From positions 1 through 38,201 of the forward strand of contig DNJG01000077.1 in NCBI GenBank assembly GCA_003489165.1: a stretch of DNA of 38,201 nt, written 5' to 3'. Below the pieces are notes generated by a model. The model made no database searches and was not told the origin of the DNA. It worked only from the letters and a program-made list of their open reading frames with translations. Positions 3,684-29,255 of the stretch are shown here, piece by piece (the first letter of the stretch is position 1; each line of letters opens with the position of its first letter). Source of the DNA: Nitrospinota bacterium. GTDB taxonomy: Bacteria > Nitrospinota > Nitrospinia > UBA9942. The position numbers were made by a program, and so were the translations under genes.

Positions 3684-3768
3684 CAGTAGGCAGTAGATAG
3701 TAGGCAGTAAGCAGTAACTCCCCTCTGTCTCTGTTTTCTTTCTACTGCTTACTCCTTACTGCTTACTG
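3684..3768. repeat. Inverted pair of heptamer arrays (CAGTAGG CAGTAGA TAGTAGG CAGTAAG CAGTAAC ... CTACTG CTTACTC CTTACTG CTTACTG)
   Basis: Five units at 3684-3718. The complementary arm at 3742-3768 runs across the ribBA stop codon (3749-3751) into its last codons. Confidence 0.88.
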
Positions 3769-4969
3769 ATGTTATTATGTGCCCCAGCTTTTTCCTCTTT
3801 GTATCAAGATATTTGACATTGTCCTTTTTAGGATGTATCTCTATCGGAACCCTATCTACTATGTGAAGCCCATATCCGTCTAATCCTACAATCTTTCTTG
3901 GATTATTTGTTATTAATCTTAAATTTTTTACTCCGAGGTTTGCAAGTATTTGGGCTCCTATACCATAATCTCTCAAGTCAGGTTTAAAGCCAAGTTCTTC
4001 ATTTGCCTGAACAGTATCTCTCCCCTGGTCTTGTAAGGCATAAGCCTTCAGCTTGTTGACAAGGCCAATGCCCCTCCCCTCCTGATAGAGATATAAGAGG
4101 ATGCCTGTCCCCTCTTTTTCTATCATCTCAAGTGCCTTATGCAGCTGCTCACCGCAGTCGCATCTGTGTGAGCCGAATACATCGCCCGTAAGACACTGTG
4201 AATGAACCCTTACAAGTATATTCTTATCAGGTGTGATTTCTCCTTTTACCAAGGCGAGGTGTATAAAATCGTTCAGTGTATTTTCAAATGCAATTACCTT
4301 AAATTCGCCGTAGTCTGAAGGAAGTTTGGTCTCTGCAGCCCTCTTGACAAAAGACTCTCTTTTCATCCTGTATTCAATGAGGTCTTTTATTGTGATAACC
4401 TTTAAGCCGAACTCCTTTGAAAATTCCATAAGCTGGGGAACTCTTGCCATAGTCCCGTCATCATTCATAATTTCACAGATAACTCCTGCCGGATATAAGC
4501 CTGCAAGCCGTGCCAAATCTACCGAGCCCTCTGTCTGACCGCTTCTAACTAAGACGCCCCCCTCCTTTGACCTGAGAGGGAATATATGCCCAGGGCTTAC
4601 AATATCGTCTTCCCTTGTCTTTGGATTGATTGCTGTAAGTATGGTAGTTGCCCTGTCATGGGCTGATATACCGGTAGTTACTCCATGCCTTGCCTCTATT
4701 GAGATTGTAAATGCAGTCCCAAATCTTGCCTCATTATTTTCAACCATCATAGGAAGATTGAGTGCTGCTACCCTTTCAGGCGTTAGAGAGAGGCATATAA
4801 GCCCCCTCCCATGCTTTGTCATAAAGTTTATTGCCTCCGGAGTGGTCTTTTCGGCAGCAATCATCAGGTCGCCCTCGTTCTCCCTGTCCTCATCATCAAC
4901 GAGGATGATCATCCTGCCTTTTTTAATGTCTTCTACCGCCTCTTCAATTGAATTAAATTTTATATCCAT
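3749..4969 (-). CDS. ribBA: Bifunctional 3,4-dihydroxy-2-butanone-4-phosphate synthase / GTP cyclohydrolase II
   Basis: 406 aa. DHBPS motif [16 protein letters not shown] zinc cluster [18 protein letters not shown] and GRGIGL. The last ~6 codons lie in a heptamer array. Confidence 0.95.
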
Positions 4970-5603
4970 GTTTTTTCAAAAAATCAGTGTTAAGTGTTGA
5001 GTGTTTAGTGTCAGTAGTCAGGTTAACAAACCTCTCTATATATTTGCCAATTATATCACATTCTATATTTACCTTCTCTCCAATTGATTTTTCCTTTAAG
5101 TTTGTCATCTCAATCGTGTGCGGTATCAATGCAATAGCAATAGAGTTGCTATCTACATTTGCTACTGTAAGACTTATGCCGTCTATTGCTACAGAACCTT
5201 TGTATATCATATATCTAATTGTATCTTCTGATGCTTTTATACCAAGATAAGCTCCATCAACTGTCCTGTCAAATTTTACTATCTCACCTATCCCATCAAT
5301 ATGTCCTGTAACAAAATGTCCGCCAAGGCGGTCACTAATTTTTATAGCCCTTTCAAGGTTTACTTTTCTTCCTGGCTTAAACCCGCCGATGGTAGTTTTC
5401 TTTACCGTTTCTTCTGAAATCTCCACCTCAAATGCATTGTTGGTATATTTTACAACGGAAAGACATGTGCCATCTATAGCTATACTTGAGCCCATGCTTA
5501 TATCATCCATTATCTTATTCGCAGCCAATGTAAGCCTAAGATTATCCCCCTTCTTAGAAATCCCCTTAACTACCCCAACTTCTTCAATCAGTCCAGTAAA
5601 CAT
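4953..5603 (-). CDS. ribE: Riboflavin synthase (alpha chain)
   Basis: 216 aa. Canonical [10 protein letters not shown] start and duplicated lumazine-binding halves ([13 protein letters not shown] / [12 protein letters not shown]). The 3-prime end overlaps the ribBA start by 17 nt. Confidence 0.93.
4985..5022. repeat. Single heptamer array (CAGTGTT AAGTGTT GAGTGTT TAGTGT CAGTAGT CAGG) within the 3-prime end of ribE
   Basis: Read directly. I found no complementary arm nearby. It encodes the ribE tail ...[12 protein letters not shown] on the minus strand. Confidence 0.75.
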
Positions 5604-5608
5604 AAGAA

Positions 5609-5675
5609 GATTTTAGATTTATGATTTACGAATTACGATTTAAAATCCTAAATCCAAAATCGTAAATCGTAAATT
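5609..5675. repeat. Inverted pair of heptamer arrays (GATTTTA GATTTAT GATTTAC GAATTAC GATTTAA / AAATCCT AAATCCA AAATCGT AAATCGT AAATT)
   Basis: Fills the whole ribD-ribE spacer. The arms abut with almost no loop, and the cores GATTT/AAATC are complementary. Confidence 0.88.
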
Positions 5676-10976: not shown

Positions 10977-11052
10977 GCGGGCGTAGCTCAGTTGGTAGAG
11001 TGTCAGCTTCCCAAGCTGAATGTCGCGGGTTCGAGTCCCGTCGCCCGCTCCA
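10977..11052 (+). tRNA. tRNA-Gly (anticodon CCC), CCA encoded
   Basis: Hand-folded cloverleaf. Acceptor GCGGGCG/CGCCCGC, D arm GCTC-AGTTGGTA-GAGT, anticodon stem TCAGC/GCTGA with loop TTCCCAA, T arm GCGGG-TTCGAGT-CCCGT, then discriminator T and CCA. 76 nt. Confidence 0.93.
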
Positions 11053-11057
11053 AAAAT

Positions 11058-11151
11058 CAGTGAACAGTGACCAGTGCTCAGTACACAGTAAAAAATGAAT
11101 TTTAAATTCTGACTACTGACCACTGATTACTAACTACTGACCACTGTAACT
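11058..11151. repeat. Inverted pair of heptamer arrays (CAGTGAA CAGTGAC CAGTGCT CAGTACA CAGTAAA ... TGACTAC TGACCAC TGATTAC TAACTAC TGACCAC TGTAACT)
   Basis: 5 units at 11058-11092 and 6 units at 11110-11151, ending exactly at the PHP gene ATG. Starts 6 nt after the tRNA-Gly. Confidence 0.9.
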
Positions 11152-12027
11152 ATGTATGCTGATTTGCATATTCATACGACCTATTCTGACGGTTCTTTCC
11201 CGCCTGCCGTAATTATTCGTCATGCTGTAAGAAATAATCTTAAAATCATATCTATTACAGATCACGATTCAGTAGATGGTATTGCAGCCTCAATTGAGGA
11301 AGGGGAGAAAAGTGGTGTTGAGGTTATACCCGGGATTGAGATCAGTACGACTGTAGATACTGGAGAGATACATATACTCGGTTATTTTATTGATTATACA
11401 GATGAGTATTTTTTGAAAAGCCTGAAGAGGATTCAGGAGATAAGGGTTAAAAGGATGTCTGTAATGGTTGATAAATTGAAAACGGTGGCAGTAGATATTG
11501 ATTTTGATGAGCTTATTGGATATGTCTCAAATAATTCAATCTGTAGACTCCATTTAGCCCATTTTTTAAAAAAGAAGGGATTTGTAAGCTCTGTATATGA
11601 GGCATTTGATAGGTATATCGGTTCTGGAAAACCTGCATATGAAAAGATGAATGCGCTCACCCCAGAGGAGGGAATAGAGCTTATATCAAACGCAGGCGGA
11701 ATTTCTGTTCTGGCACATCCCGGGCTTACAAGAAGGGATGACCTTATAGATGTTATGATTTATGCAGGTCTTAGGGGGTTGGAGGTTTATCACAGCGGGC
11801 ATTCCGAAGAGGATACGAACCGCTATTTTCAAATGACAAAGGATAAAGGGCTTTTGGTGACAGGCGGCTCTGACTGCCACGGCGAGAAAAAACTCAATAT
11901 AATGATGGGAAGGGCAAAACTTCCGATTCAATATGTGGACAGATTGAAGGATGAGGTATCAAATATTAAATTCATAAATCAAAATGAAAACATTAAAGGC
12001 ATGTCTCAGAGTTCAAAGACAATTTAA
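11152..12027 (+). CDS. PHP-domain metal-dependent phosphoesterase (TrpH/YciV-like)
   Basis: 291 aa. Motifs DLHIHTTYSDG, ITDHD, LAHPG and GGSDCHG are typical of the PHP family. Confidence 0.85.
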   Translation: MYADLHIHTTYSDGSFPPAVIIRHAVRNNLKIISITDHDSVDGIAASIEEGEKSGVEVIPGIEISTTVDTGEIHILGYFIDYTDEYFLKSLKRIQEIRVKRMSVMVDKLKTVAVDIDFDELIGYVSNNSICRLHLAHFLKKKGFVSSVYEAFDRYIGSGKPAYEKMNALTPEEGIELISNAGGISVLAHPGLTRRDDLIDVMIYAGLRGLEVYHSGHSEEDTNRYFQMTKDKGLLVTGGSDCHGEKKLNIMMGRAKLPIQYVDRLKDEVSNIKFINQNENIKGMSQSSKTI

Positions 12028-19035: not shown

Positions 19036-20172
19036 ATGTTTGAAAAAATAGATTTAATAGTAGAGAGATATAACGAGATTACTGAGTTGATAAGCCGTCC
19101 TGAGATTATCTCAAGGCAGCAGGAATATCTGCGTCTTGTAAAAGAGCATGCAGAGTTATCTGATATTGTAAAAACATATCAGGGATATAAGAAGATAGTT
19201 AAGGAGACACAGGAGAGTGCTGCTCTGTTGAAAGATGAAGTTGATAAGGAATTAAGGGAACTGGTGGCAAGGGAGTTGGCTGAACTTGAGTTGAAAAGGA
19301 GTAAGTTGGAAGATGATTTAAAGATGCTCCTTATTCCAAAAGACCCTAATGATGAGAAGAATATCATTCTTGAGATAAGGGCTGGGACAGGTGGTGAAGA
19401 GGCGGCACTCTTTGCGGCTGACCTGTTTAAAATGTATTCAGCATACGCACAGAAACAAGGATGGAATGTGGATGTAATGAGCAGTAATGTTACAGGAAAG
19501 GGCGGTATTAAAGAGGTAATAGCGATGATAGAAGGCAAAGGGGTTTATAGCAAGCTGAAGTTCGAGAGCGGAATTCATAGGGTTCAGAGGGTTCCCGAGA
19601 CAGAGGCATTAGGTCGGGTGCATACATCTGCCGCAACTGTTGCAATACTCCCTGAGGCTGAGGAGATAGATGTAGTTATAGATATGAAAGATATTAGGGT
19701 TGATGTTTTCAGGTCTGGCGGACATGGCGGGCAGAGTGTAAACACAACCGACTCTGCCGTAAGGGTTACTCATATATCTACAGGAATAGTTGTATCCATG
19801 CAGGATGAAAAATCACAGCACAAAAATAAAGATAAAGCATTTAAGATACTCAGGGCAAGGCTTAAAGAAAGACAGGAAAAAGAGCAGTTTGATGCAAGGG
19901 CACTGGAGAGAAAAACTCAGGTTGGAAGCGGTGACAGGAGTGAGAAGATAAGGACATATAATTTTCCCCAGAATAGGGTTACCGACCATAGAATAGGATT
20001 AACTCTCCATAGACTTGATTCAATTTTAAAAGGTGATTTACAGGAGATAATTGATAAATTGATTATTGCCTACCAGACAGAGGCACTGAATTCAAAAGAG
20101 GATTCAAGGGTTCAAGGAGTCAAGGGATTGAGCGAAAAGAAAAGTCAAACACTTGAACCCTCGATCCCTTGA
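19036..20172 (+). CDS. prfA: Peptide chain release factor 1
   Basis: RF1 P-x-T motif (RVQRVPETE) and GGQ motif ([10 protein letters not shown]). The ATG at 19036 is preferred over the tracked TTG at 19012, which lies inside a repeat arm. The last ~25 codons are encoded by an octamer array. Confidence 0.93.
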
Positions 20173-20184
20173 CCACTTGACCAC
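20102..20184. repeat. Inverted pair of octamer arrays (ATTCAAGG GTTCAAGG AGTCAAGG GATTGAGC ... ACTTGAAC CCTCGATC CCTTGACC ACTTGACC)
   Basis: The left arm encodes the PrfA C-terminal tail. The right arm spans the prfA stop (20170-20172) and the putative prmC start. Confidence 0.88.
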
Positions 20185-21148
20185 TATAATTTTAAGAGAT
20201 ATTCTTAATTGGGCAGCAGAATATCTCAAAAGTCATAATATCCCCTCTGCCCGCCTCGATTCAGAAGTCCTCCTTTCTTTTGTCTTGAATAAAGACCGCA
20301 CATATCTCTACGTAAATTCAGAAACCAGAATACAGAAGTCAGAAGTCAGAAGATTCAAAGAATTTATTGAGAGAAGGGGGATGATGGAGCCTGTAAGCTA
20401 TATTACAGGGGAGAAAGAATTCTGGTCACTCAAATTTAAGGTAACAAAGGATACCCTTATACCAAGACCAGAAACAGAGGTACTCGTTCAGACTGTTCTG
20501 GATATAATCAGAAGCCAGAAGTCAGAAGTCAGAAGTCAGAAGTCAGAAGCATGCCTTGAGCGAAGTCTAAAGGTTAAAAATCTTCAATCTCCAATCTTCA
20601 ATCCCATACGCATCCTTGACATTGGGACAGGTTCTGGAAATATTGCAGTTAGTATTGCAAAAGAGAGCCCGGAGTCTCATGTTTTTACAGTAGATAAGTC
20701 AGATAGTGCATTATCTGTTGCAAAGGAAAATGCAATAATTCATAATGTAGCAGGAAGGATTATCTTCTTAAAGGGTGATTTATATATTCCATTTAATCCT
20801 CCTGGCCCCCTTTTCATAAAGGAGGGTAAGGAGAGATTATTTGATATTATTGTATCAAATCCGCCTTATATACCAACATGTGATATAGAGGGATTAATGC
20901 CTGAGGTAAGGGACTGGGAGCCGAGATGGGCTCTTGACGGCGGAAAAGACGGATTGGAGATTATACAGAAAATAATAAAAGATGCGCCACTGTTCTTGGA
21001 ATCAGGTGGTTTTATAGCAATGGAGATAGGTTTTGGTCAGTATGAGGAGGTATCTCGTATTATTTCAGACATAGATAAATTTCATAATATAAAAACGATA
21101 AAAGATTTATCAGGGATTGAAAGGGTTGTTACTGCATGGAAAAGATAA
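20153..21148 (+). CDS. prmC: Release-factor glutamine N5-methyltransferase PrmC (HemK)
   Basis: SAM motif ILDIGTGSG and catalytic VSNPPYI. The start is uncertain: no ATG, only TTG candidates at 20153 and 20177, both inside a repeat arm. Contains in-frame heptamer arrays. Confidence 0.88.
20319..20353 (+). repeat. In-frame heptamer array in the prmC N-terminal domain (CAGAAAC CAGAATA CAGAAGT CAGAAGT CAGAAGA)
   Basis: Read directly. Encodes [12 protein letters not shown]. Confidence 0.85.
20509..20601 (+). repeat. In-frame composite element in prmC: CAGAAGC (CAGAAGT)x4 CAGAAGC, a 30-nt spacer, then TCTTCAA TCTCCAA TCTTCAA
   Basis: Six units at 20509-20550 and three units at 20581-20601. Encodes [31 protein letters not shown] immediately before the SAM-binding ILDIGTGSG motif. 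Confidence 0.9.
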
Positions 21149-24575: not shown

Positions 24576-25634
24576 ATGATTGACATCAAAAGTTTTGTAA
24601 AAAAAGAGGTCAAGGAGCTCAAGCCCTATCACATAGAGAATACCCCATGCAGAATCAAGCTTGATGCAATGGAGAATCCTTATCCTCTGTCTGAGGCTCT
24701 GATGAAAAAGGTTGTGGAAGGTATTAAGGGGATAAAGATAAACCGCTATCCCGACCCTCTTGCATCAAGACTTAAAGACATTATCTCATTGCATGTTAAA
24801 ACTCCTGTAGACAATATAATAATAGGAAATGGTTCTGACGAACTCATTCAGTTAATTCTGACTGCATTTGGAGGGCATGGGGATAGGGTTCTTTTACCAA
24901 TTCCCACATTTTCTATGTATGGGATTATTGCAATGTCTCTGTCCCTTATGCCTGAAGGTGTCTCTTTGGGTAAGAATTGGGCACTTCCGTTGGACAAATT
25001 CTTATCCAATATGGAGAGAATTAAACCGAAGGTTATTTTTATCAGCTATCCAAACAATCCTACAGGAAACTCATTTGATAAAGAATCAATTTTAAAGGTA
25101 TTGGAAAAAACGACTGGCATTGTTGTAATAGATGAAGCATATTATGATTTTTCAAGGAAGACATTTTTGCCATATCTGAAAGAGTGTAAGAATTTAATCA
25201 TTTTAAGGACTCTTTCAAAAATAGGAATGGCAGGCTTGAGGGTTGGATATTTGATGGCGGATAAGGAGATTTGCCAAGAGCTAAATAAGGTTAGGCTTCC
25301 ATATAATTCCAATGCTCTTTCACAGGAGATATCAAGTATAATTTTAGAGAACAGAACAGAAATTCAAAAACAGATAGGAGCTATTATATCGGAAAGAGAT
25401 AAGCTTATGGAGGGGCTTAAAGAAATTGAGGGTATTGAACCATATCCTTCAGAGACAAACTTTATCCTGTTTAAAGTAGATAGAAACAGCAAAGAGGTCT
25501 TTGATAGATTATCAGACAATGGTATACTTATCAGAAATTTTGGCAATGACAATTATCTGAAAGATTGCTTGAGGGTTACAATAGGCACTCCGGAAGAGAA
25601 TAATGAATTTTTAGATACAATAAGAAAATTATAG
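24576..25634 (+). CDS. hisC: Histidinol-phosphate aminotransferase
   Basis: 352 aa. Motifs NENPYP, YPNNPTG and the PLP-lysine motif TLSKIGMAGLRVGY. Confidence 0.95.
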   Translation: MIDIKSFVKKEVKELKPYHIENTPCRIKLDAMENPYPLSEALMKKVVEGIKGIKINRYPDPLASRLKDIISLHVKTPVDNIIIGNGSDELIQLILTAFGGHGDRVLLPIPTFSMYGIIAMSLSLMPEGVSLGKNWALPLDKFLSNMERIKPKVIFISYPNNPTGNSFDKESILKVLEKTTGIVVIDEAYYDFSRKTFLPYLKECKNLIILRTLSKIGMAGLRVGYLMADKEICQELNKVRLPYNSNALSQEISSIILENRTEIQKQIGAIISERDKLMEGLKEIEGIEPYPSETNFILFKVDRNSKEVFDRLSDNGILIRNFGNDNYLKDCLRVTIGTPEENNEFLDTIRKL

Positions 25635-25648
25635 CATAGGAGGACAAA

Positions 25649-26236
25649 ATGGAGAGGAAGGCTGAGGTTAAAAGAAAGACGAAAGAGACAGATATTAGCG
25701 TTTGTTTAAAATTAAATGGCAGGGGTGAATATAAGGTAAATACTGCTGTCCCATTTTTAGACCACATGCTTTCTCAGATTGCAAAGCATGGTCTTTTTGA
25801 TATGGAGATTAATGCAAAGGGTGATACGGATGTAGATTTTCATCACACTGTTGAAGATGTAGGGATAGCACTCGGAGATGCATTTAAGAAAGCACTTGGA
25901 GAAAAGGTGGGTATAAAAAGATATGGGCACGCAGTGATACCTTTGAATGAAGCGCTCTCAATGGTTTCAGTGGATATAAGCGGGAGACCATTTATTGTCT
26001 ATAATGTCAAGATGCCAAAAGAAAAGGTTGGAGAATTTGATGTAGAGTTGACAGAGGAATTTTTCAGGGCATTTGCAAATAGCAGCGGTATGAGTCTGCA
26101 TATAAATATGATATATGGGAATAATCTCCACCATATAATTGAATCAATCTTCAAAGCAGCAGCAAGGGCATTAGATGAGGCCACCTCCTTAGATGAAAGA
26201 GTAAAGGGGATACCCTCTACGAAGGGAAAACTGTAA
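25649..26236 (+). CDS. hisB: Imidazoleglycerol-phosphate dehydratase
   Basis: 195 aa. Motifs [24 protein letters not shown] and NLHHIIES. Confidence 0.97.
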
Positions 26237-26243
26237 AAGCAGG

Positions 26244-26310
26244 GGTTAGGGATTAGGGGATAGGGGTTAGTAAAAAAACTAATCCCAAGTCCCTAACTCC
26301 AAGTCCCTAA
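26244..26310. repeat. Inverted pair of heptamer arrays (GGTTAGG GATTAGG GGATAGG GGTTAGT ... ACTAATC CCAAGTC CCTAACT CCAAGTC CCTAA)
   Basis: hisB-hisH spacer. The G-rich arm also satisfies a G-quadruplex motif (see findings). Confidence 0.88.
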
Positions 26311-26314
26311 TTCT

Positions 26315-26986
26315 ATGATTGCAATAATAGACTACGGAATGGGTAATTTGAGGAGTGTCCAGAAGGGGTTTGAGAGGGTTGGACATGAAGCTGTTGTAAC
26401 AAATAATCCCCAAGAGATACTTTCTGCTGATGGAGTTGTCTTGCCCGGTGTTGGTGCATTTAAAGACTGCATGAGGAATTTAGAAAATGGCAGATTGATT
26501 GATACTGTATATAAGGTTATAGAAAATGGTAAACCCTTCCTTGGCATCTGTCTTGGTCTTCAGCTTTTGTTCACAGAAAGTGAGGAATTTGGTATTCATA
26601 AAGGTTTGGATATTGTTAAGGGTAGAGTTGTAAAATTCTCTTTTAATACTCCGAACTCCGAACTCCAAACTCCGAACTTTAAAGTTCCCCACATGGGATG
26701 GAATAGCATAAAAAAGAGTGGTCAGTGGTCAGTGGTCAGTGGTCAGAAAAACCAATTTTCATCTATTTATGAAGGGATACCTGACAACTCCTTTTTTTAT
26801 TTTGTCCATTCCTATTATGTAATACCGGAAGATGATGATGTTATAGCATCCACGACTGACTATGGGGTTGAGTTTGTTTCAAGCATCTATAAGGATAATA
26901 TCTTCGCCTGCCAGTTTCATCCCGAGAAGAGTCAGGAAGCCGGCTTAAAGTTGCTAAAGAATTTTGGAGATTTTTGTAAATGTTAA
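26315..26986 (+). CDS. hisH: Imidazole glycerol phosphate synthase, glutamine amidotransferase subunit
   Basis: 223 aa. Motifs IAIIDYGMGN, nucleophile elbow GICLGLQLL, VPHMGWN and QFHPEKS. Two in-frame heptamer arrays flank VPHMGWN. Confidence 0.95.
   Translation: MIAIIDYGMGNLRSVQKGFERVGHEAVVTNNPQEILSADGVVLPGVGAFKDCMRNLENGRLIDTVYKVIENGKPFLGICLGLQLLFTESEEFGIHKGLDIVKGRVVKFSFNTPNSELQTPNFKVPHMGWNSIKKSGQWSVVSGQKNQFSSIYEGIPDNSFFYFVHSYYVIPEDDDVIASTTDYGVEFVSSIYKDNIFACQFHPEKSQEAGLKLLKNFGDFCKC
26648..26678 (+). repeat. In-frame heptamer array in hisH (ACTCCGA ACTCCGA ACTCCAA ACTCCGA ACT)
   Basis: Read directly. Encodes TPNSELQTPN just before the conserved KVPHMGWN. Confidence 0.92.
26718..26746 (+). 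repeat. In-frame perfect heptamer array in hisH (GTGGTCA x4 + G)
   Basis: Read directly. Encodes SGQWSVVSGQ just after the conserved VPHMGWN. Confidence 0.92.
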
Positions 26987-27720: not shown

Positions 27721-27767
27721 TCGTCAGTAAAAACTATTCACTATTCACTAACTACTAATGACTAATC
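27692..27767. repeat. Inverted pair of heptamer arrays (TAGTGGG TAGTGAA AATTTCG GTGAATA GTCGTCA GTAAAAA / CTATTCA CTATTCA CTAACTA CTAATGA CTAATC)
   Basis: The left arm covers the last ~9 hisA codons and its stop. The right arm ends at the hisF ATG. Confidence 0.85.
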
Positions 27768-28601
27768 ATGCTTACACGAAGAATAATCCCCTGTCTTGAT
27801 GTAAAGGATGGCAGGGTTGTAAAAGGGGTTAAATTTTTAAATTTAAGGGATGCAGGGGACCCTGTTGATGTTGCTGAGATTTATGACAGGGAAGGGGCAG
27901 ACGAGATTACATTTCTTGATATTACAGCCTCACATGAAAACAGAAATATTATTATTGATGTAGTTTATAGGACAGCAGAAAGGGTCTTCATGCCACTTAC
28001 AGTTGGCGGTGGCATAAGGACACTTGATGATATAAGAAATTTATTGAAGGCAGGTGCGGATAAGGTTTCAGTAAATACCGCAGCAGTTAAAGACCCTGAA
28101 TTTGTAAAGAGGGCATCTGAAAGATTTGGTAGTCAGTGCATTGTGGTGGCAATAGATGCGAAAAAAATACAGAAGACAGGAGACAGAAGACAGAAGGCAG
28201 AAAAAAAAGAAAATTTAAACTCCGAACTCCGAACTCCGAACTCCGAACTTTTAAGGTGGGAGGTTTTTACACACGGGGGTCGTAATCCTACAGGACTTGA
28301 TGCAGTGGAGTGGTCTCAAAGGATGGAAGAGTATGGTGCAGGAGAGATACTCCTTACAAGTATGGATAGAGACGGGACGAAAGAGGGATATGATATTGAA
28401 TTGACAAAAAACATATCAGAGACAGTCGGTATCCCTGTTATAGCATCAGGAGGGGCTGGCAATCTACAGCATCTTTATGAGGGATTTATGGAAGGGAAGG
28501 CAGATGCCGTCCTTGCCGCATCTATATTTCATTATCGTGAATATACAATTAAAGAGGCAAAAGAGTTTTTAAGAGGGAAAGGGGTTAATGTAAGGTTATA
28601 A
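27768..28601 (+). CDS. hisF: Imidazole glycerol phosphate synthase, cyclase subunit
   Basis: 277 aa. Motifs [33 protein letters not shown] and ASGGAG. It is longer than I recall for typical HisF (~250 aa) because of an internal double heptamer array. Confidence 0.95.
28170..28249 (+). repeat. In-frame double array in hisF: CAGAAGA CAGGAGA CAGAAGA CAGAAGG CAGAAAA, an A-rich spacer, then (ACTCCGA)x4 ACT
   Basis: Arrays at 28170-28204 and 28219-28249. Encode [27 protein letters not shown] between the conserved VVAIDAK and W.VFTHGG segments. Confidence 0.92.
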
Positions 28602-29255
28602 ATGGACATAAAAAATCTAAAATACGACAGTAACGGTTTAATACCAGCAATTATTCAAGACTGGAAGAATGGTGATGTGTTGATGCATGCCTATATGAAT
28701 GAGGAGTCATTAAAGAAGACTATTGAAACTGGCTATACCCATTTCTGGAGCAGGTCAAGGGGAAAGCTCTGGAAAAAAGGGGAGACATCCGGAAATGAGC
28801 AGATTGTCAAAGAAATAAACTATGACTGTGATAATGATACATTACTTGTAAAAGCAGAGCAAAAGGGTGTTGCCTGCCATACAGGTAATAGGACATGCTT
28901 TTTCGGTAAGTTATTTGAAAGTCCGAAATCCGAAGTCCGAAGTCCGAAGTCCGAACTAATTGACAAGATATATGAGGTAATTCTGGACAGGAAAAGAAAT
29001 ATGAGAGAAGGTTCCTATGTATCTTCACTATTTAAAAAAGGCAGAGATAAGATACTTAAAAAGATAGGAGAAGAGGCATCAGAGGTAGTGATAGGTTCTA
29101 AGAATGACAAGAAAGAAGAAATTATCTACGAGATAGCAGACCTCTGGTTTCACTCCCTTGTTTTGTTGGGGTATCATGATATAACCCCTGAAGATATTTA
29201 TAAAGAATTACAAAAAAGATTCGGCAAGTCAGGAATTAGAGATGAGAAAAAATAG
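28602..29255 (+). CDS. hisI: Bifunctional phosphoribosyl-AMP cyclohydrolase / phosphoribosyl-ATP pyrophosphatase
   Basis: 217 aa. HisI part ([26 protein letters not shown]) and HisE part ([19 protein letters not shown]). A heptamer array lies in the inter-domain linker. Confidence 0.95.
28921..28955 (+). repeat. In-frame heptamer array in hisIE (GTCCGAA ATCCGAA GTCCGAA GTCCGAA GTCCGAA)
   Basis: Read directly. Encodes [12 protein letters not shown] at the HisI/HisE domain junction. Confidence 0.92.

Follow-up and report, generated by a model that had tools for sequence, protein, structure and literature searches.

How does a tandem repeat with a unit of seven nucleotides come to lie within the reading frame of an essential gene, and what keeps that frame open once it is there? 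The question is raised by hisF, the gene for the cyclase subunit of imidazole glycerol phosphate synthase, in contig DNJG01000077.1 of a Nitrospinota bacterium (assembly GCA_003489165.1). I will refer to the whole stretch that was analyzed, 38.2 kb of DNA of 38.6% GC that encodes a his operon, as the window. Its HisF contains an insert encoded by two adjacent heptameric arrays, and the answer I favor, with a probability of roughly 0.78, is that the insert is a heptanucleotide microsatellite, driven by slippage, which a surface loop tolerates and which is probably neutral. It is one local case of a genome-wide formation of 7-nt arrays in this uncultured groundwater Nitrospinota lineage (39% GC). 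What is observed are the arrays themselves, the specificity for period 7, the quantization of length differences at 21 nt, the compensation of frame between arrays, the position within a loop and the turnover of the loop among relatives.

Tandem arrays were called with Tandem Repeats Finder (TRF), and strict and lenient scans for period-7 arrays were set against Markov shuffles. Loci and contigs used for comparison are designated by L- and P-numbers. The Nitrospinota lineage was reached by a query with a single protein, a profile-based scan of contigs having given only relatives at ≤70% identity, and one metagenome scan yielded two close relatives only; further alleles were fetched individually. 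The closest named relatives are groundwater Nitrospinota metagenome-assembled genomes (MAGs), e.g., NC_groundwater_948 and RIFCSPLOWO2.

Two Heptameric Arrays within hisF

A preliminary description of this DNA, made from the sequence alone, reported two in-frame heptamer arrays in hisF, and its coordinates, units, copy numbers and peptide all agree with the raw sequence, the TRF calls and the translation (Table 1). Positions 28170-28204 read CAGAAGA, CAGGAGA, CAGAAGA, CAGAAGG and CAGAAAA, followed by the spacer AAAGAAAATTTA and then by 4.4 copies of ACTCCGA (28219-28249). The unit of array A is free of stop codons in all frames, and translation of the arrays gives a peptide with a period of seven amino acids (TEDRRQK, NSELRTP).

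Table 1. Coordinates of hisF, of the parts of its insert and of other heptameric arrays in and near genes of the window.
Feature	Position	Strand	Remarks
hisF (imidazole glycerol phosphate synthase cyclase subunit)	27768..28601	+	277 aa; from list of open reading frames (ORFs), PF00977 homologs
Expanded β5-α5 loop	28164..28256	+	31 codons (usual 5-10 codons); between VVAIDAK and WEVFTHGG
Array A, (ACAGAAG) x4.9, imperfect	28169..28202	+	TRF period 7, 88% matches, score 54; encodes 11 aa
A-rich spacer, AAAAAAAGAAAATTT	28203..28217	+	15 nt between arrays A and B; from sequence
Array B, (AACTCCG) x4.6, perfect	28218..28249	+	TRF period 7, 100% matches, score 64; encodes 11 aa
Intergenic array (ACTATTC) x2.6	27733..27750	+	TRF; 18 nt upstream of hisF start
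hisH array (ACTCCGA) x4.4	26648..26678	+	TRF; in frame, NTPNSELQTPN, just before conserved PHMGWN strand
hisH array (AGTGGTC) x4.3	26717..26746	+	TRF, 100% matches; in frame, SGQWSVVSGQ, just after PHMGWN strand
hisIE array (AAGTCCG) x5.3	28919..28955	+	TRF; in frame, 13 aa, PRA-CH/PRA-PH linker
prmC (hemK) array, (CAGAAGT)-type	20319..20352	+	TRF; in frame
prmC (hemK) array, (CAGAAGT)-type	20509..20549	+	TRF; in frame
prmC (hemK) array, (AATCTTC) x3.5	20579..20603	+	TRF; in frame

The RNA of the insert forms no hairpin between the two arrays, and its minimum free energy (−12.2 kcal/mol, z = +1.03) shows that it folds worse than shuffled sequences. A search of the window against Rfam found neither an RNA family nor an intron at hisF, the sole match being a tRNA at 10977-11049. 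There is an A8 run at 28201-28208 (formed in the hisF spacer with the preceding AGAA), which is read in frame as GAA AAA AAA GAA and fits the A_AAA_AAA slippery pattern; a −1 shift there would terminate translation about 20 codons on, and the resemblance is probably incidental.

Repeats can be misassembled, and an in-frame segment might be removed as an intron or intein. Neither deserves much credence here: I consider an artefact or a non-translated segment to be the least probable of all the explanations taken up below. The identical 277-aa protein is found on 14 independently assembled groundwater contigs, coming from several samples and assemblers, and the insert is therefore not an assembly artefact. 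Removal was rejected as well, since an insert of 29 aa is far too short for an intein (>130 aa) and shows no intein or splicing motifs, since Rfam, introns included, has no match in the region, and since the frame is kept in all relatives despite their different sequences.

The Protein and the Position of the Insert

The his genes lie in the order hisB-hisH-hisA-hisF-hisIE. In another strain with an identical HisF (L161, positions 1-2212 set against 24768-26977 of the window), the sequence upstream of hisA differs, with sugar-nucleotide genes on the opposite strand in place of hisB-hisH; this points to a rearrangement at the hisH/hisA boundary.

Against the proteins of the PDB, phmmer matched the window protein to HisF-LUCA with an E-value of 1.7e-106. 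The match comes in two pieces, residues 1-134 and 164-277 of the query, so that 29 residues stand in place of 3 in HisF-LUCA. The statement in the preliminary description that HisF is longer here than is typical proved sound: solved HisF structures have 251-253 aa as compared with 277, and the loop has 31 aa rather than 5-10. The AlphaFold2 (AF2) model of the protein (mean predicted local distance difference test, or pLDDT, of 82.8; predicted template modeling score, or pTM, of 0.83) was matched by Foldseek to HisF structures with target-normalized template modeling (TM) scores of 0.92-0.95. The catalytic residues D11 and D130 and the phosphate-binding residues G80-82 and S227-G229 are invariant in the HisF alignment. 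With its (βα)8 barrel, catalytic Asp11 and Asp130, GGG and SGG motifs, and hisH and hisA as neighbors of its gene, the window protein is a bona fide HisF.

Residues 137-160 have pLDDT values below 50 and are modeled as disordered. They sit between strands 125-134 (β5 and its extension) and 163-168, before helix 179-188, and the insert is therefore placed by the model at a β-hairpin turn within the β5-α5 loop. In the TIM-barrel topology the loops that lead from β-strands to α-helices lie on the catalytic (C-terminal) face. Structural work on the HisH-HisF complex, with which the title of PDB entry 1gpw agrees, places HisH on the face opposite the catalytic one, with ammonia tunneling across the barrel. 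The placement of the insert relative to the barrel and to HisH, a matter raised in the preliminary description, can thus be given as predicted by the model: it is on the catalytic face, opposite the face where HisH docks.

Variation of the Loop among Relatives

The loop was surveyed in hisF genes between the conserved motifs VVAIDAK and WEVFTHGG, giving 217 distinct loops. Among the 128 shorter than 15 aa (typically RVPGEDR or KVSGEGEPSR) a single one contains a period-7 array, as compared with 55 of the 89 loops of at least 15 aa. Related lineages with short loops include P0107 (8 aa), P0061 (9 aa) and P0119 (10 aa). Relatives whose HisF is 86-100% identical to that of the window have other heptamer units or other copy numbers at the same site: the position of array A is taken by (CAGTGGT), (AGTCAGA), (GAGTCGA) or (ATGGGTC) instead of (ACAGAAG), and the spacers differ as well. 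A tree from which the loop columns were left out puts the window in a clade of near-identical backbones with wildly different loops.

The association of loop length with arrays, the turnover of units and the relatives with short loops support the earlier claim that the extra peptide comes from repeat DNA rather than from an ancestral loop. Orthologs with loops of the same length and similar sequence that lack the 7-nt period, which would have spoken for an ancestral loop, were not seen in the lineage of the window, and to that extent the claim stands; a few Nitrospirota orthologs, on the other hand, do have loops of the same length with weak periodicity. These sit among sisters that bear arrays, and their sequences look like decayed arrays.

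Close relatives show how the loop changes. The hisF loop of L365 is that of the window minus exactly three AACTCCG units (−21 nt), leaving 1.6 units in array B. L082 and L084 have a spacer in common and differ in having one versus four copies of TTGCCCC (+21 nt); L085 and L288 also differ by 21 nt in hisF. Growth in situ from a single pre-existing unit can be seen directly in the comparisons of L082 with L084 and of the window with L365. In L162, from the same population as the window, it is hisH that lacks exactly 21 nt, three ACTCCGA units. Apart from this one gap, L162 and the window differ by 1 mismatch over 5385 aligned columns, which implies that indels in the arrays are frequent relative to point substitutions. 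Every length difference examined in comparisons of close relatives, whether in the hisF loop or in the hisH array, is exactly 21 nt, or three units. A different route to the same sum is seen in L081 and L286, where array A differs by +14 nt (two units) and array B by +7 nt (one unit), and the 6-nt spacer AGAGAA between them is read in two different frames, giving (S)EK and QRN. A frameshift in one array can thus be made good by the other.

A second type of small in-frame insert, PPSPPF(D/N/S)KGG(M/V)GG, occurs in the hisIE linkers of L081 and L082 and in the hisF loops of P0035 and P0072. Judged from the peptide alone, it would derive from a palindromic repeat of a C-run and a G-run.

Does a Slip Ever Switch the Gene Off?

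Phase-variable genes classically carry a simple repeat within the ORF, with a unit length not divisible by three. One might therefore suppose that hisF, and with it hisH, hisIE and prmC, is a contingency locus, switched off and on by single-unit slips so as to give reversible auxotrophic subpopulations. The high frequency of array indels relative to point mutations fits this idea, and the compensation between arrays implies that out-of-frame intermediates existed in the past. Such intermediates were not found, however, in 249 hisF loci retrieved by tblastn, which tolerates frameshifts: no locus is out of frame, the N- and C-terminal halves always being in the same frame and the gap between them a multiple of 3. 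Nor were any found on the 14 contigs with the exact protein. Matches of 1.15-1.24 kb in gammaproteobacterial loci were set aside, as these proved to be tblastn hits extending into the paralogous C-terminal half of the neighboring hisA. The tracts, moreover, are short (4-5 units), and their hosts are housekeeping genes, with no association with surface, antigenic or restriction-modification functions. I therefore rejected a phase-variable locus and hold it to be very improbable.

One hisF locus, L101 (10397-10516; Nitrospirota MAG MFD05442.bin.1.86), contains a TGA codon in frame among the arrays of its loop (SRLRAPHP*AHEPR). It arose by substitution, not by a slip, which gives the contingency idea no help, and it could represent a pseudogene, a sequencing error or readthrough.

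Heptameric Arrays across the Window

The hisF arrays have counterparts elsewhere in the window. The strict scan found 7 period-7 arrays, as compared with 0.05 in Markov shuffles; periods 4-6 and 8-12 gave none. The lenient scan found 19 against an expected 0.5, with periods 4-6 and 9-13 at background (0-2 arrays); a signal at period 14 is a harmonic of 7. The density of arrays in L081-L084 is 0.3-0.6 per kb, whereas most other genomes have 0-0.1.

Eight of the 19 arrays lie in frame inside housekeeping ORFs: two each in hisH and hisF, one in hisIE and three in prmC. The other 11 lie between genes or at their boundaries, though the window is mostly coding, typically a few to tens of nucleotides from a start or stop codon. 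The unit is free of stop codons in all three sense phases in 8 of 8 arrays within ORFs, as compared with 3 of 11 intergenic and boundary arrays and an expectation from base composition of 0.54.

The two arrays of hisH, a gene with the predicted peptide FSFNTPNSELQTPNFK, flank a conserved strand, and they come and go among relatives: the (ACTCCGA) array is absent in L365, L366 and L083, and the (AGTGGTC) array in these three and in L081. The unit of the latter array is that of hisF array A in L286, L368 and L081. In hisIE the two Pfam domains occupy residues 28-101 and 122-206, and the linker between them is hypervariable among relatives. The prmC/hemK ORF (20153-21148; 331 aa, TTG start) has its PrmC_N domain at residues 16-86 and its methyltransferase domain from residue 144, with the array pair in the linker between the domains; the array-derived peptide includes LQSPIFNP. 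The pairs of arrays within ORFs of the window do not fold (z of +1.0 for hisF, +1.4 for prmC and +1.2 for hisH).

The arrays are diverse in unit and uniform in copy number. In a census of 147 arrays from 2.57 Mb of fetched loci there are 89 different units, and 114 of the arrays have 4-5 copies (in rounded copy numbers, 63 with 4, 51 with 5, 6 with 6 and 1 with 8). Outside of hisF, 95 arrays in the sampled loci have 74 units.

Several further arrays may be recorded. Intergenic pairs at 5608-5674, 3684-3768, 11058-11146 and 2021-2096 are inverted and form strong hairpins (z of −3.9, −2.9, −4.8 and −1.8, respectively). The members of these pairs are mutual reverse complements, e.g., (ACGATTT)n beside (AAATCGT)n, and resemble repetitive extragenic palindromic (REP) elements or terminators whose stem repeats every 7 nt. 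The tRNA gene at 10977-11049 (Rfam, 71.6 bits) is followed immediately by the pair at 11058-11146; only 6 nt then separate this pair from a gene for a PHP-domain protein that starts at 11152. A G-rich array (AGGGGTT/AGGGATT, x4.3) at 26241-26270, 45 nt upstream of hisH, is like the G-quadruplex-forming GGGGAYT arrays of Nostoc (PMC4692102). An array (AGTGTTA) x3.7 at 4986-5011 falls within the coordinates of the ribE ORF (4953-5603, minus strand), in the tail that follows the Lum_binding domains toward the C-terminus, and its consensus unit has stop codons on the sense strand.

Probable Slippage, and What It Leaves Unexplained

Slipped-strand mispairing in the course of replication is the most likely means by which the arrays gain and lose units. 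Since 7 is not divisible by 3, an essential gene would tolerate net changes of 21 nt only, and the survivors would be those in which three units were gained or lost in one array or those in which compensating slips occurred in two neighbors. A second filter would be that none of the three phases of the unit contain a stop codon. Three units would then be read through all phases, presumably giving rise to a polar, proline-containing, disordered loop. The peptide of the insert is most likely a tolerated passenger, probably with no function of its own, because its model is disordered, its turnover rapid, some relatives have short loops and the catalytic residues are intact.

Several points weigh against tolerated slippage as a complete account. 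The translation of the insert is inferred, and slippage does not account for the preference for 7 nt and for 4-5 copies. In a clade of Nitrospirota (51-58% GC) the hisF loop is conserved and 38-40 aa long, its last 12-13 residues being encoded by ~4.5 copies of AACTCCG, CACTCCG, CAATCCG or similar, just before WEV[FY]THGG; in some members these arrays have decayed. The same (AACTCCG)n, or [AC]A[AC]TCCG, thus appears at exactly this site in Nitrospirota hisF in a loop of near-constant length (39 aa), which pure neutral slippage in situ would not explain. Some orthologs (L104) keep the 7-aa period after the periodicity of the DNA has decayed, which could indicate weak selection on the peptide. 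Finally, L370 (3001-3792) and L371 (87-914) share an 87-nt loop cassette, (AAAAGTT)n-spacer-(AACTCTT)n, that is identical at 85 of 87 nt (98%). The flanks of L370 are 93-94% identical to the window; those of L371 (150 nt) are only 71-76% identical to those of L370. The pairing of this cassette with a backbone of the window's type is confirmed by its recurrence on another contig, P0037, and L372 (3001-3828) has a loop 90% identical with flanks at 72-79%. A 98% identical cassette across backbones of 71-76% identity would likewise not be expected of pure slippage in situ.

Was the Insert Acquired or Selected?

The shared cassette is one reason to ask whether the insert arrived ready-made, as an exchangeable or selfish cassette resembling a Rickettsia palindromic element (RPE) or a miniature inverted-repeat transposable element (MITE), or as a short recombination patch, slippage setting in only later. 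Besides the near identity of the L370/P0037 loop to that of L371 despite divergent flanks, and the similarity of L372, such an origin would suit the loop-masked tree, where entirely different loops nest among near-identical backbones. It would also suit the fact that several loops and all the intergenic pairs are hairpin-forming inverted arrays, like palindromic mobile repeats; the L370/L371-type cassette and some other relatives' loops fold as hairpins with z of −2.0 to −3.3. There is precedent as well in RPEs, which are in-frame selfish DNA in housekeeping genes (PMC10969869).

Other findings speak against such an origin. In the window the arrays of the insert lack complementarity to each other and form no fold (z = +1.03). 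Neither target-site duplications nor terminal inverted repeats were observed, and expansion in situ is seen in L082 versus L084 and in the window versus L365. A 27-nt core of the L370/L371 cassette has no exact match in 185,579 GTDB species representatives and occurs in 2 of 372 loci scanned (L370 and L371 only), the window's own cassette not having been scanned whole; the shared cassette thus does not represent a mobile family with dispersed copies. With no dispersed copies found by the scan with this core and no palindrome in the window insert, an RPE- or MITE-like insertion was rejected, and I judge acquisition of a cassette, broadly conceived, to be an unlikely origin for the insert. For the sharing between L370 and L371, the remaining options are lateral replacement of a short patch or a constraint at the level of DNA.

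Constraint is the basis of another explanation, that the insert is a functional element. Selection might act on the peptide, e.g., by extending the β5'/β5'' hairpin over the active site, or on the arrays in mRNA or DNA, as binding sites for protein or RNA, as a means of translational pausing or as CUCC repeats resembling anti-Shine-Dalgarno sequences. One unit type, A[CG]TCCGA, recurs within a single operon, in hisH, hisF and hisIE, and in the Nitrospirota clade (AACTCCG)-type arrays keep a fixed position and ~4.5 copies while their units change in a coordinated way. The loops of L370, L371 and L372 are more conserved than the coding DNA that flanks them. For Nostoc and Beggiatoaceae it has been suggested that heptamer arrays close to start codons act in regulation (PMC4679880; bioRxiv 10.1101/2022.06.06.494920).

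Against a function stand the relatives that exchange the unit of array A, retain only 1.6 of the 4.6 units of array B, or make do with short loops free of arrays. The segment is disordered in the AF2 model and its RNA less structured than shuffles. Besides the 74 different units outside of hisF, (AACTCCG)n of at least 3.4 units occurs across many phyla, in at least 120 stretches, both between genes and inside a variety of unrelated ORFs. Among the matches listed are Cyanobacteria, Verrucomicrobiota, Bacteroidota, Omnitrophota, Planctomycetota and Nitrospirota, some with up to 20 copies; in many of these matches the array lies in a long ORF and reads as NSELRTP or, on the other strand, as GVRSSEF. 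A selected function seems to me slightly less plausible even than acquisition.

A broader view, which I offer tentatively and consider rather doubtful, is that the tip of the HisF β5-α5 hairpin is a long-lived cassette site common to Nitrospinota, Nitrospirota and neighboring groundwater lineages. At this site paired arrays would persist in an essential gene by buffering each other's frameshifts, evolve in concert at near-constant length and occasionally move as patches of ~90 nt between distant genomes.

Relation to Known Repeats

Tolerated slippage, the reading I prefer, places the insert among repeats that are well known. According to PMC4692102, and to Mrazek 2007 as related in PMC4679880, heptameric simple sequence repeats (SSRs) are the commonest class of long SSR in many bacteria; they do occur in coding regions, though less often than expected. 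They prefer about four units, and include cyanobacterial short tandemly repeated repetitive sequences (STRRs) and the arrays of GGGNATC or GGGGAYT in Xanthomonas and Nostoc (PMC4692102). Arrays of TAACTGA are common to Beggiatoaceae, Cyanobacteria and Bacteroidetes (PMC4679880), and in Nostoc a regulatory role has been suggested for heptamer arrays near start codons (bioRxiv 10.1101/2022.06.06.494920).

The arrays of the window share the defining properties of heptanucleotide SSRs and STRRs: tandem 7-nt units, an excess specific to period 7, about 4 copies and polymorphism of copy number between strains. Like them, they are scattered through the genome as head-to-tail units in ~4-5 copies, many beside start or stop codons and often as inverted pairs. 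They differ in that about 8 of 19 arrays are in frame in conserved housekeeping ORFs, in the great diversity of the units, with no favored motif, and in the documentation of polymorphism quantized at 21 nt and of frame compensation between two arrays. The insert is not a new type of system; it is a well-resolved example of known heptameric SSR arrays. Searches of the literature found no description of such arrays in groundwater Nitrospinota.

Other systems are more distant. The insert is like RPEs in adding in-frame peptides to unrelated housekeeping or metabolic proteins at positions compatible with the fold, and some relatives' hisF cassettes are palindromic; RPEs, however, are dispersed families of ~150 bp with a conserved peptide, whereas the hisF insert consists of site-specific arrays growing in situ. 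It has in common with the contingency loci of Haemophilus and Neisseria (tetra- to heptanucleotide SSRs within ORFs) repeats that are not triplets and a high rate of indels, and differs from them in its short tracts, housekeeping hosts, changes that only preserve the frame and lack of off-phase alleles.

The small dispersed repeats (SDRs) of Nostoc, on which Elhai and colleagues reported in 2008, are said to be ~21-27 nt in length, able to sit in genes without breaking the frame and associated with heptameric tandem repeats. Unlike these, no conserved dispersed unit was found here beyond the heptamers themselves.

Implications

For those who annotate genomes or model structures, the finding is a warning: "insertions" of 20-30 aa in the core proteins of these MAGs are repeat-derived and hypervariable, and are poor markers of phylogeny or function. 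The sharing of a cassette across lineages, if real, would point to lateral exchange in very short patches inside conserved genes, and if the tip of the HisF hairpin is indeed a long-lived cassette site, it would provide a natural system in which non-triplet microsatellites, perhaps with a dedicated mechanism that generates or exchanges 7-nt repeats, shape the loops of core enzymes.

The insert shows how a microsatellite whose unit is not a triplet persists in an essential enzyme: the loop has to be disordered and tolerant, the units must contain no stop codon in any phase, and changes in length must come to 21 nt or be compensated by an adjacent array. Heptameric repeats have been known chiefly from cyanobacteria, Xanthomonas and Beggiatoaceae; their range now takes in groundwater Nitrospinota and Nitrospirota, and coding DNA as well.

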